The notes under the pieces: model-generated
Seen by the model: only the letters and a program-made list of their open reading frames with translations
The model's database searches: none
Told to the model about the DNA's origin: nothing
Position numbers and translations under genes: made by a program
Part shown: positions 2,603 to 6,058 of the stretch, one piece after another
How positions within the stretch are numbered: position 1 is the first letter of the stretch
How the letters are laid out: every line of letters begins with the position of its first letter
IMG/VR virus record: IMGVR_UViG_2541047122_000029
DNA length: 39,214 nucleotides
Reading direction: 5' to 3' (one strand)
From: a virus
Lineage: Duplodnaviria; Heunggongvirae; Uroviricota; Caudoviricetes

Positions 2603-3535
2603 ATGACTGATATTAACGATGTAATCAAGACCATTGATGAACTTATTGATGGCGGCGTACTGACACAGTATGCCATCGCCAGAGAGGCGGGAATTTCCGA
2701 CGGCACATTATCGGCTTTCCGTAAGGGAAAATATAAAGGCGATAACGCTGCTGTGGCTGCTTCCCTGCGTTCCTGGTATGAGAACTGGAATAAACAAAGC
2801 GCACTGCCGGAACCGCCGCAGTTTGTGGAAACGCAGACAGTCCAGGAGCTGCGCACACTGTTTCAGGCGGTTCGTCTGATGGGCTGTATTAACGTTATTG
2901 TGGGCGTACCGGGTGTGGGTAAAACGGCCACTGCCCGTAATTACTGCCAGGAGCAACCAAACACCTGGATGATCACCCTGTCACCCGCGCACTCCAGCGT
3001 CACGGAGTGTCTGCTGGAGCTGGCCGATGCGCTGGGGATTGATTACACCCGCGCGAACAAAGGGGCATTATCCCGCGCCATCCGCCGTCGCCTGATGGGA
3101 ACGCGTGGACTGGTGATTGTGGATGAGGCGGATCATCTTGGTATTGACGGTCTGGAGCAACTCCGGGCAATTCAGGACGCCACGGGGATCGGGATGGTGC
3201 TTATTGGTAACCCGCGCGGATTGTTTAAAGGTGGACGCCGCGCCTTTGATGATTTATCGCGCCTGTTCAGCCGTCTTGCCCGTACAAAACAACTTCGCAA
3301 GGCCAAAAAGGCGGATGTGCTGGCCATTGCCAGGGCGTGGGGGATCAGTGGTGAGGCCGAGCTGGCCGTCATGCAGGCTATCGCTGAAAAGCCGGGAGCG
3401 TTACGCGTTCTGACACATACGCTTAACCAGGCGTGGCTCACCGCCAGCGGTGAAGGTGCGGCGCTGACAGAAAAACATATTAATGCGGCCTTTAAAGAGG
3501 TTTATACCAACCCTGAATTACTCTCACAGGTGTGA
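2603..3535 (+). CDS. B: Mu B-like transposition ATPase / target DNA activator
   Basis: 310 aa; N-terminal HTH, Walker A GVPGVGKT, IVDEADHL Walker B-like motif, conserved LPEPPQFVETQTV; matches Mu B organisation. Confidence 0.9.
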   Translation: MTDINDVIKTIDELIDGGVLTQYAIAREAGISDGTLSAFRKGKYKGDNAAVAASLRSWYENWNKQSALPEPPQFVETQTVQELRTLFQAVRLMGCINVIVGVPGVGKTATARNYCQEQPNTWMITLSPAHSSVTECLLELADALGIDYTRANKGALSRAIRRRLMGTRGLVIVDEADHLGIDGLEQLRAIQDATGIGMVLIGNPRGLFKGGRRAFDDLSRLFSRLARTKQLRKAKKADVLAIARAWGISGEAELAVMQAIAEKPGALRVLTHTLNQAWLTASGEGAALTEKHINAAFKEVYTNPELLSQV

Positions 3536-3537
3536 TT

Positions 3538-3759
3538 ATGGCGGTATTTTATATTCCTGATATTTACGGACGCTTTTACCTGGTTAATTTCGATAACGTG
3601 AAGGTGATTTCACTGGCCGAAAATAAAGAATGTGGCGATTTACTTTTTGAATTTAATGACCGCACACGAATGGTGATATCTGCCGGACTTGATCGCGAAG
3701 GTGCGACAGAAGTTTACAGCGGAATATGCCGTTCTGTTGGTGCGAAACAAGTCAGCTAA
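3538..3759 (+). CDS. Hypothetical early protein
   Basis: Track ORF 3532-3759 starts at GTG; first ATG is at 3538. Tightly packed after B. Confidence 0.5.
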   Translation: MAVFYIPDIYGRFYLVNFDNVKVISLAENKECGDLLFEFNDRTRMVISAGLDREGATEVYSGICRSVGAKQVS

Positions 3760-4026
3760 ATGAGGTGTTATATGAATATGCAATCCTGCGGTAACAAAAT
3801 GAATTTATTCGACTCCCTGAACAGCGCGCGCCGTCTGACCGAACTTGCCGGTGCGGTACTGGAACGCAGTAAGCGCTATCCGCAACGTTTTGCACTGAAA
3901 ACCACGCCGCCGGTAGGCAACGTGCAGGGAACCGGTGAAATTGAAATCACCATACAGACCAACGGCCTGCGCCGCCGTGTGAAGGCCACCCGCATCAGCG
4001 GCTGCACGGTTTACTGGGAGGTGTGA
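3760..4026 (+). CDS. Hypothetical early protein
   Basis: 88-aa ORF. An internal ATG at 3772 preceded by GAGGTG may be the true start. Confidence 0.5.
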   Translation: MRCYMNMQSCGNKMNLFDSLNSARRLTELAGAVLERSKRYPQRFALKTTPPVGNVQGTGEIEITIQTNGLRRRVKATRISGCTVYWEV

Positions 4027-4027
4027 G

Positions 4028-4309
4028 GTGAAAAAAAATCTCATTGCATGGGCGTGGTCGAGTGGTCTTATTGAGTTTGGTTACGTCCTGCCGGAAGGTG
4101 CATTGCCGATAGTTGCCGGAAAGCCTGCCACGGTACGGCATGTGATTGAGGTTATGGCGCGTCATGGACGTGATGAACAGGAGCAGTTACTGGTTCCGGG
4201 GATACCGGAAGCGGTGACGGAGGAAGAAGCCTTTAATGCCATGATTCGGTTCTGCCGTGAGGTCAGACGCCGGGTCAGTTATCCAAACAGAACGAGGACC
4301 AGAGGATGA
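4028..4309 (+). CDS. Hypothetical early protein
   Basis: 93-aa ORF, GTG start preceded by GGAGGTG; contiguous with neighbours. Confidence 0.5.
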   Translation: MKKNLIAWAWSSGLIEFGYVLPEGALPIVAGKPATVRHVIEVMARHGRDEQEQLLVPGIPEAVTEEEAFNAMIRFCREVRRRVSYPNRTRTRG

Positions 4310-4578
4310 GTAAAGTCGTACGCATTATTTTCGAATACAAGGAGCACGTTATCCATAAAAACGCGGATGGAACAGTGCGCATGGGGATAAGTCTGGACAT
4401 ACGTTCAACCGGGATAAAGCAGAAAGGTGATGGACCTGCCATGATTTTTGGGGTGGTTATGCTCGCGGAAAGCAGAGACTTTGCTGAACTTGTGGCAATG
4501 AAAGCCAGTGCGCTCATGAAAGATATGAGCATGCGTTCCGGGGTTATTAAAGGTAATGAATTTAATCAGCAGGGGTAA
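4306..4578 (+). CDS. Hypothetical early protein (paralog 1 of tandem pair)
   Basis: 90 aa; N-terminus MSKVVRIIFEYKEH... is paralogous to the next gene. Confidence 0.55.
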   Translation: MSKVVRIIFEYKEHVIHKNADGTVRMGISLDIRSTGIKQKGDGPAMIFGVVMLAESRDFAELVAMKASALMKDMSMRSGVIKGNEFNQQG

Positions 4579-4582
4579 TTCC

Positions 4583-4876
4583 ATGAGCAAAGTACGCGTT
4601 ATTTTTGAATTTAAGCATGTTTCGCATGACGAAAAACCGGCAGGCAATGACTGTGTTGAAGTGCATGAAAAGATTGGTGTGGATGTAAAAACAGAACGTG
4701 ATACGAATAACAGGCCGACGTCACTCTGTGACGTTTATGTAAGTATTCTCCAGTATCACAGTCCTGAAATTATTCAGTTTCTCTCAGCGGAATTTCAGGC
4801 ATCTGTACAGGCTTTTGGGGCGGATGCCATCATTAAACGCCACCGCGTGCATAAAGCATCAGGCACACTGCAATAA
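4583..4876 (+). CDS. Hypothetical early protein (paralog 2 of tandem pair)
   Basis: Internal ATG of track ORF 4556-4876 gives MSKVRVIFEFKH..., matching the start of the previous gene. Confidence 0.55.
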   Translation: MSKVRVIFEFKHVSHDEKPAGNDCVEVHEKIGVDVKTERDTNNRPTSLCDVYVSILQYHSPEIIQFLSAEFQASVQAFGADAIIKRHRVHKASGTLQ

Positions 4877-4887
4877 GGAAAAACAAA

Positions 4888-5418
4888 ATGGCAAAACGCG
4901 TTACAAAATTAAAGGCCGCAGCCGAGGCTGCACCGCAGACCCGCGAAGAGGTCAGCCGCGATATCCGCACCCTGGGCGATATTCAGCGAGAGGCGCTGCG
5001 GCTGGAAACGGCGATGAATGATGAAGTGGCAGAAATCACCGCCCGTTATACGCCGCAAATTGAAAACCTTAAAAAAGAAATCAAAGTGCTTTTTAAGGGG
5101 ATTCAGGACTGGTGCAAAACCAACCGAGATGAGCTGACGAACGGCGGCAAAACAAAAACTGCCAATCTGACCACCGGCACGGTGTCATGGCGGCTGGGAA
5201 ATCCATCATGCAGCGTCAGCCGTGATGTGGAAGGCGTGATTGAAATGCTGCGCCTTATGGGGCTTGAGCGATTCATCCGCACGAAAGAGGAAGTGAACAA
5301 GGAAGCCGTCCTGGCGGAGCCGGATGCGGTGAAAGGCATTGCCGGTATAAAGGTGAATAAAGGCGCTGAAAGTTTTTATGTCGAGCCTTTTGAACAGGAC
5401 GCCGGACTGAATAAATAA
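4888..5418 (+). CDS. gam: Gam-like host-nuclease inhibitor (DNA-end binding protein)
   Basis: 176 aa; ...RLETAMNDEVAEI..., ...NRDELTNGGKTKTANLTTGTVSWR..., ...FIRTKEEVNKEA... match Mu Gam as I recall it. Confidence 0.85.
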   Translation: MAKRVTKLKAAAEAAPQTREEVSRDIRTLGDIQREALRLETAMNDEVAEITARYTPQIENLKKEIKVLFKGIQDWCKTNRDELTNGGKTKTANLTTGTVSWRLGNPSCSVSRDVEGVIEMLRLMGLERFIRTKEEVNKEAVLAEPDAVKGIAGIKVNKGAESFYVEPFEQDAGLNK

Positions 5419-5515
5419 CACCACATTAAATCTTTAAATATCACATCGTTTTAATTATGGCGCTCGCGTCAGGGGACTGCCTGCGCCTGAAAGCTGAAAA
5501 TAAGGAATCGGAAAC

Positions 5516-6058
5516 ATGGCATATTTTTATTTCAAATTAGACATAGTGTACACAAATAAATATTTAACCGAATATCAGCGGGATGTTTTACCGCTACGCA
5601 ACAGTATTCTTCGGGCATTACTGAAAAATACAGGCGCTGCCGGATTGCGCTTAAAGCCGTTCGCCATGGACGTAATCAGTGAGTTTTATTTTTCTGGTTC
5701 TCTGCCTGCGGGCTGGCGTAAGCGCGATGATGTGGCTTTTATCGGGGGCGGACCGTGCTTTATTGCCAGACCTGATGAGTCATGCCCTGAAGGTCCGGCG
5801 ATTGCCGCAATGGTTGAAGCCGCTGAACGCGAGTTAAGAAAGCGTCCTGATTTCCTTGTCTGGCTCTGTGAAAAGCTGGGGGTAATGAGAATCCCCTCCA
5901 TGTTTAACACGGACTCCTGGTGGACCCCGTCACTCTCCCGTGATGCCCTGTGCGTGGTGTTTAAAGTAGGAACTTATGGCAGGGAAATAAAAGGGGGTAT
6001 TCCTGAAGAATGCCAGGAGATTAAACATTCTGAATATGTGGCGCTGACGGAGGAATAA
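5516..6058 (+). CDS. Hypothetical early protein
   Basis: 180-aa ORF after the only intergenic gap in the early operon (5419-5515); RBS TAAGGA upstream. Confidence 0.6.
   Translation: MAYFYFKLDIVYTNKYLTEYQRDVLPLRNSILRALLKNTGAAGLRLKPFAMDVISEFYFSGSLPAGWRKRDDVAFIGGGPCFIARPDESCPEGPAIAAMVEAAERELRKRPDFLVWLCEKLGVMRIPSMFNTDSWWTPSLSRDALCVVFKVGTYGREIKGGIPEECQEIKHSEYVALTEE

Follow-up and report, generated by a model that had tools for sequence, protein, structure and literature searches.

A tandem pair of small early genes upstream of gam in a Mu-like prophage of Escherichia coli: evidence for one diverged protein family

The semi-essential early region of bacteriophage Mu contains 14 ORFs, most of them uncharacterised, which are carried on a long early transcript together with the transposition genes A and B; besides kil, the region specifies further host-lethal functions (PMC3325207). 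One of its products, gp7 (E6, AAF01086.1, phrog_10252), is a small early protein of 87 aa encoded between kil and gam, as are the two proteins described below, and it begins with MAKVIIEIKN, an amphipathic first strand similar to theirs. Unlike the pair described here, the gp7 gene is separated from gam in Mu by gp8 and gp9.

We analyzed a stretch of 39,214 nucleotides (IMG/VR record IMGVR_UViG_2541047122_000029), referred to below as the window. It is a Mu-like prophage, and positions 3500-5500 are 97% identical to an 'inserted Bacteriophage Mu-like phage' within a Stx2c phage record. Among 5,426 complete E. coli genomes, 232 contained the segment 4028-4890, and O157:H7 and other STEC account for many of these; this prophage is common among Shiga-toxin E. 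coli. The part of the window considered here is the counterpart of the Mu semi-essential early region, and its genes are as follows:

2603-3535, + strand: MuB
3532-3759, + strand: ORF of 75 aa (phrog_3375)
3787-4026, + strand: Kil
4028-4309, + strand: ORF of 93 aa (phrog_1518, labelled 'host nuclease inhibitor')
4306-4578, + strand: gene A, 90 aa (phrog_4107), the extra copy restricted to E. coli
4583-4876, + strand: gene B, 97 aa (phrog_2230), the conserved copy immediately before gam
4888-5418, + strand: gam, encoding Mu Gam, a host-nuclease inhibitor (PF07352, E=1.1e-40; 57% identical to Gam of Mu)

Genes A and B are arranged head to tail with no gene between them, the stop codon of A ending at 4578 and B starting at 4583. 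An earlier reading made from the letters of the window alone (the sequence-only reading) had described them as adjacent early genes of 90 and 97 codons just upstream of gam, and both the ORFs and the match of the next gene to Gam agree with that description. The stop of the 93-aa gene overlaps the start of A in an ATGA at 4306-4309, which implies translational coupling of these two genes. The ATG of A is preceded at a distance of 7 nt by GAGGA, and that of B, at the same distance, by the Shine-Dalgarno sequence AGGGG. The longest ORF for B would comprise 106 aa from an ATG at 4556, overlapping the end of A; RefSeq at near-identical loci and all homologues start B at 4583, which gives the 97-aa form. 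Synteny with Mu suggests that the long early transcript covers both genes.

Some observations on the surrounding genes can be added here. The 4028-4309 gene is named 'host nuclease inhibitor protein' in some of its RefSeq copies; it is unrelated to Gam and gave no match in Pfam or NCBIfam. Not all E. coli prophages possess it, and where it is absent a remnant of its 3′ end, about 66-74 nt long, forms the leader before A (L004 and L016) or before B (L002). The 3532-3759 gene overlaps the stop codon of MuB; its product has 73-75 aa and is conserved between E. coli and Salmonella prophages at 54-97% identity, and BLASTP found no counterpart for it among Mu gp5-gp9. After gam the window carries a 180-aa gene (5516-6058, phrog_2260), in place of which other E. 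coli and Salmonella prophages have a 192-aa DUF5420 protein; the replacement at 3764-4342 of L004 is only 23% identical to the phrog_2260 protein. This position is another allelic or replaceable slot of the early region.

RefSeq lists both A and B as hypothetical proteins. A matched the phrog_4107 HMM (PHROGs v4) over its full length (1-90 of 90, E=2.1e-61) and gave no phrog_2230 match at E<=0.1; B matched the phrog_2230 HMM of the same release, its residues 3-97 aligning with positions 1-88 of the 89-position profile (E=1.7e-39). A is basic (pI 9.45, charge +2.7), and B has a pI of 6.6 and a charge of -1.0; neither carries a strong charge. Purifying selection acts on both alike, which together with the RefSeq entries speaks for real genes: median dN/dS was 0.30 for 20 alleles of A and 0.35 for 24 alleles of B, the alleles being drawn from IMG/VR and genome loci and only pairs with dS>0.1 being counted.

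Both genes are individually dispensable, as follows from an IS66-family insertion, from frameshifted or truncated variants and from an in-frame A-B fusion. In E. coli 23CRST047 (L003, 2779-5439) A is interrupted directly behind codon 81 by ISEc22, an element of the IS66 family, which replaces the C-terminus of A and separates A from B. The fusion protein (P0036, E. coli, 67 aa) joins residues 1-49 of A to residues 79-97 of B. Its junction, 'FG', coincides with the 8-nt microhomology TTTTGGGG, which A (4446-4453) shares with B (4813-4820); the two copies are 367 nt apart, a spacing that turns the reading frame of A into that of B.

Comparison of the two proteins supports the view that A and B have diverged within a single family of small soluble early proteins, about 90-100 aa in length, which enterobacterial Mu-like prophages encode. 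The sequence-only reading had called them paralogues which share a near-identical N-terminal segment and then diverge. The segment is indeed common to both, with 12 of 15 aligned residues identical, and is encoded as follows:

4306-4356, + strand: conserved N-terminal coding segment of A, MSKVVRIIFEYKEHVIH; first beta-strand, left boundary of the A cassette
4583-4627, + strand: conserved N-terminal coding segment of B, MSKVRVIFEFKHVSH; first beta-strand, left boundary of the B cassette

BLASTP aligned residues 1-17 of A with residues 1-15 of B (12/17 columns identical, 2 gaps, E=0.001 as a single comparison); when sequences were shuffled, the local score was reached in 2 of 2000 trials and the global score in none of 2000. 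The homology was borne out by two further approaches. The window yields 517 ORF segments of 40 aa or more in its six frames. When an HMM of the B family was searched against all of them, A was the only other match (E=1.2e-4), the next best having E=1.7, and no third paralogue was found among these segments. Profile-profile comparison of the A and B families with hhalign gave 93% probability and E=3.6e-7 over 71 columns, with reversed-sequence controls at P of about 0.5. With the A family (22 sequences) and an E. coli-only B family the probability was 84% over 33 columns, and addition of the distant B-type proteins raised it to 87-93% (E=3.6e-7 to 3.9e-6, 66-71 columns). A also aligned with a profile built from Salmonella and Serratia B-type proteins only (P=4e-4, 64 columns), and a small search gave an 86-column alignment of A with the divergent B allele of E. 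coli CI5 (E=7e-5). The profile results being significant, the pairwise alignment does not reflect a chance agreement of a few residues.

As to the divergence that was said to follow the N-terminus, the drop in similarity is strong, but the wording was too sharp, since weak collinear similarity can be followed as far as residue 65-70 or so. In the last 25 or so residues no similarity between A and B was detected. The link between the two proteins joins phrog_4107 and phrog_2230 into one family.

Alleles of both genes from other prophages were compared with the window by profiles of DNA identity in 30-nt windows. These delimited two variable regions:

4328-4537, + strand: variable body of A, allelic cassette (identity profiles with L021 and L043)
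4610-4867, + strand: variable body of B, allelic cassette (identity profiles with L040, L043 and L047)

Near-identical DNA was found at 4268-4327, at 4538-4597 and from 4868 on. Each variable body is thus bounded on its left by a conserved N-terminal coding stretch. Alleles of A, in classes of 78-100% identity, and alleles of B (58-100%) were found in all combinations. The variable bodies would be swapped between phages by recombination in the conserved flanks, the N-terminal coding stretches included. Such mosaicism is the usual pattern of cassette exchange in phages.

Recombination of this kind could also explain the resemblance of the two proteins, if A were an unrelated small gene which had gained a B-like 5′ end of about 45 nt, so that the homology would be that of the first beta-strand. 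The steep fall in identity, from 12/15 at the N-terminus to about 11% elsewhere, fits such a chimera, as does the pairwise alignment of A and B, which was not significant once the N-termini had been removed (z of about 0). Moreover, the N-terminal coding segments are located at the cassette boundaries, where recombination clearly happens, and, although A resembles E. coli B in its N-terminus, the Salmonella types are slightly nearer to it in the body. Against this explanation, the profiles of the two families still aligned collinearly with hhalign, in an unchanged register, after the first 17 residues of A and 15 residues of B had been cut (P=0.003, 42 columns), and A without its N-terminus still aligned with the Salmonella/Serratia-only profile (P=0.004, 38 columns), reversed controls for these comparisons being 0.5-0.7. 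In addition, A shares with the Salmonella protein P0065 the pattern G-I-S-x-x-[IV]-R-S-x-G-[IL] ... G-P, and the same order of hairpin and helix is predicted in A and B (see below). We therefore regard a chimeric origin of A as unlikely and favor homology of the two proteins, with the qualification that similarity past the first 15-17 residues appears as a weak, modest profile signal (P of about 0.003-0.004).

The first strand is the best conserved part of the B family, V6, F8 and F10 being invariant from E. coli to Serratia. The complete set of invariant residues, V6, F8, F10, I55, L56, E70 and G79, belongs mostly to the hydrophobic core and, as far as conservation can tell, carries no catalytic signature. 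The hallmark of the family is an amphipathic N-terminal beta-strand, M-S-K/N-x-V-x-V-I-F-x-F, opening a long hairpin. In the AF2 model of B (pLDDT 83, pTM 0.66) the hairpin strands comprise residues 4-21 and 24-39 and are followed by helices at 48-58 and 60-77. The model of A is poor (pLDDT 59), with a hairpin at 3-18/24-38, a low-confidence strand at 45-53 and a helix at 57-73. Structure prediction is in partial agreement with the relationship: a hairpin followed by helix is seen in both models, but that of A is of low quality and the third element differs, being a low-confidence strand in A and a helix in B. A fold common to A and B is plausible on the basis of these models. In such a fold the N-terminal strand would open the long beta-hairpin, which would pack against the C-terminal helices.

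A Foldseek search revealed no known fold relative, all matches having E>=0.08; the nearest likenesses were to the dimerisation domain of M20 peptidases and to ACT-like alpha/beta two-layer sandwiches (7ljh, 6slf, 1ysj, 1zpv). In the B model the helices cannot cover the full length of the hairpin. This over-long hairpin, together with the likeness to domains that pair their sheets, suggests that the modelled protein may oligomerise, and the exposed part of the hairpin would probably mediate it.

A survey of copy number showed that A lies immediately upstream of B in 40 of the 41 IMG/VR loci that have B, and that relatives in Salmonella, Serratia and Citrobacter have a single B-type gene. E. coli CI5 (L002) and one further locus (L046) carry B without A. 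Homologues of A were found only in E. coli, at 72-98% identity, and a scan with an A pattern detected no A-type gene in species-representative genomes; this range of A comes from word-indexed and pattern-based searches, the exhaustive HMMER search having covered the B family only. The latter search, with the B profile, found just 11 representatives. Five of these are full-length proteins of Salmonella enterica and Serratia, 25-30% identical to B, and a pattern scan added a B-type protein of Citrobacter braakii. When A, B and P0065 were compared by tblastn with 50,697 phage records, the only matches were two Stx-phage records with an inserted Mu-like element.

In all six contexts outside E. coli (L005, L007, L091, L092/L093, L094 and L095) the B-type gene is single, comes after kil with or without a gene of the 4028 type, and is located directly upstream of the gam or DUF3164 gene. 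Where the 4028-type gene is present in the Salmonella and Citrobacter relatives, it overlaps the start of the B-type gene in the same way as it overlaps A in the window. A side observation concerns the next gene: a 212-aa DUF3164 protein (PF11363) takes the place of Gam in three Salmonella/Citrobacter loci (L005 4303-4941, L092 3303-3941 and L095 2803-3441), and the otherwise similar prophages L007, L094 and L091 keep Gam there. This suggests that functionally alternative modules, Gam and DUF3164, occupy the slot after the B-type gene.

The single B-type copy in the relatives and the confinement of A to E. coli indicate that B is ancestral and that A is an addition limited to one lineage. Past the N-terminus, A is identical to B or to B2, an allele about 60% identical to B in protein, at 8 of 75 positions, and to the single-copy Salmonella B-type proteins at 10-15 of 75; A is found paired both with B and with B2. 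The body of A being no closer to B than to the Salmonella proteins, and A being paired with both alleles, the event that gave rise to A must be old. We conclude that A goes back either to an old duplication event or to offset recombination in which the partner phages had divergent alleles. A would have been wedged between the 4028 gene and B and would then have diverged strongly, the N-terminal strand alone staying well conserved.

Local duplication had been proposed by the sequence-only reading. The neighbours are homologous, as this requires, but a recent event is without support at the DNA level. If B had recently undergone in-place tandem duplication in the E. coli prophage lineage, and the upstream copy had then diverged very rapidly, this would account for two adjacent genes of similar length on the same strand, for the confinement of A to E. 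coli, and for the N-terminus of A (MSKV-R-IFE-K-H), which is nearer to that of E. coli B than to the Salmonella/Serratia type (MSNK-Q-IFTFE). However, no direct DNA repeat linking A and B was detected, neither the upstream nor the downstream flank is duplicated, and the DNA shows no sign of a recent conversion tract either. The 5′ coding DNA of the two genes is identical at 35 of 45 bases, with similarity limited to these first 45 aligned coding bases, and four of the seven N-terminal codons that differ do so by synonymous changes, so that the segments must have been separate for long. The 8/75 and 10-15/75 identities given above also argue against a recent duplication, and the occurrence of A with both B and B2 indicates that A predates their split or is independent of it. 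We consider a recent duplication improbable, more so than a chimera, and retain an old origin of A.

The 5′ segment might instead have been kept as a nucleic-acid element, that is a translation-initiation region or a regulatory RNA, and not as a peptide. Both copies do start at the initiation codons of tightly packed and probably coupled genes, which would suit such an element. The differences between them nevertheless gather at synonymous third codon positions, the peptide being preserved, no similarity exists upstream of the two starts, where the Shine-Dalgarno regions are unrelated, no Rfam family matched in the window, and the numbers of predicted promoters and terminators in 3400-5600 do not exceed those in shuffled sequence. 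From the synonymous codon differences, the unrelated upstream regions and the absence of a direct repeat and of an Rfam match we infer that the peptide is the conserved entity; a nucleic-acid element is very hard to credit. A chance likeness between two unrelated short ORFs, to which the BLASTP value of only 0.001 over 17 columns might point, is still less credible and is effectively refuted by the window-wide HMM search that picked out A alone and by the hhalign result with its clean reversed controls; the match also begins at residue 1 of each protein. Taken as a whole, the account given here, of a homologous family with an old origin of A, exchangeable cassettes and a putative binding function, is the best explanation and a probable one.

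Searches for a function gave no direct indication. Neither A nor B had a meaningful match in Pfam (E<=0.1), NCBIfam or the sequences of the PDB; a weak match to an AI-designed TIM barrel (E=0.001) was dismissed, as no stretch of it passes on its own. No model of anti-phage defence in PADLOC-DB matched either protein at E<=1, and in the literature we did not find a study of these ORFs. Two specific identities were considered and rejected. Acidic DNA-mimic anti-restriction proteins of the Ocr/ArdA type are strongly negative, which, by the charges given above, neither A nor B is. Identity with Mu Gam, the host-nuclease inhibitor, does not hold for A or B either, PF07352 being matched by the 4888-5418 gene only.

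Tentatively, A and B may be small oligomeric, non-enzymatic proteins that bind host factors in early lytic growth; we put this forward as a possibility to which we would give well under an even chance. Such binding would serve host takeover or counter-defence, and A would add a second specificity. It could further be imagined that the two form a diversifying host-targeting pair, in which the N-terminal strand oligomerises, possibly into A-B heterodimers, and the bodies are swapped specificity cassettes. We think this unlikely; if it were true, E. coli prophages would carry two specificities and their relatives one. When semi-essential regions of the Mu type are screened for host takeover or counter-defence, A and B are reasonable but not outstanding candidates.

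Among known proteins, those of phrog_2230 are the closest relatives of the pair. The B-type proteins of Salmonella, Serratia and Citrobacter (for example EAO9321158.1 and WP_048797090.1) have the same length as B (93-98 aa) and share with it the N-terminal V-x-V-I-F-x-F strand and the place directly upstream of gam or DUF3164; among Mu-like prophages of enterobacteria, gam/DUF3164 thus has a conserved neighbour in the B-type protein. Each of these relatives has a single copy and the window has two, with A in the separate phrog_4107. The likeness to Mu gp7 is more distant. It is collinear with phrog_2230 at E=0.009, and hhalign gave P=0.07 against B and 0.14 against A; neither BLASTP, hhalign (with the single sequence or with a family of 21 sequences) nor hmmsearch found its similarity to A or B significant. 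Nevertheless gp7 (E6) may be the classical counterpart in Mu. Compared with what is known of such phages, the pair is ordinary, a case of routine accessory-gene paralogy and shuffling in a phage early operon, in which the variable bodies of A and B are shown to behave as exchangeable cassettes.
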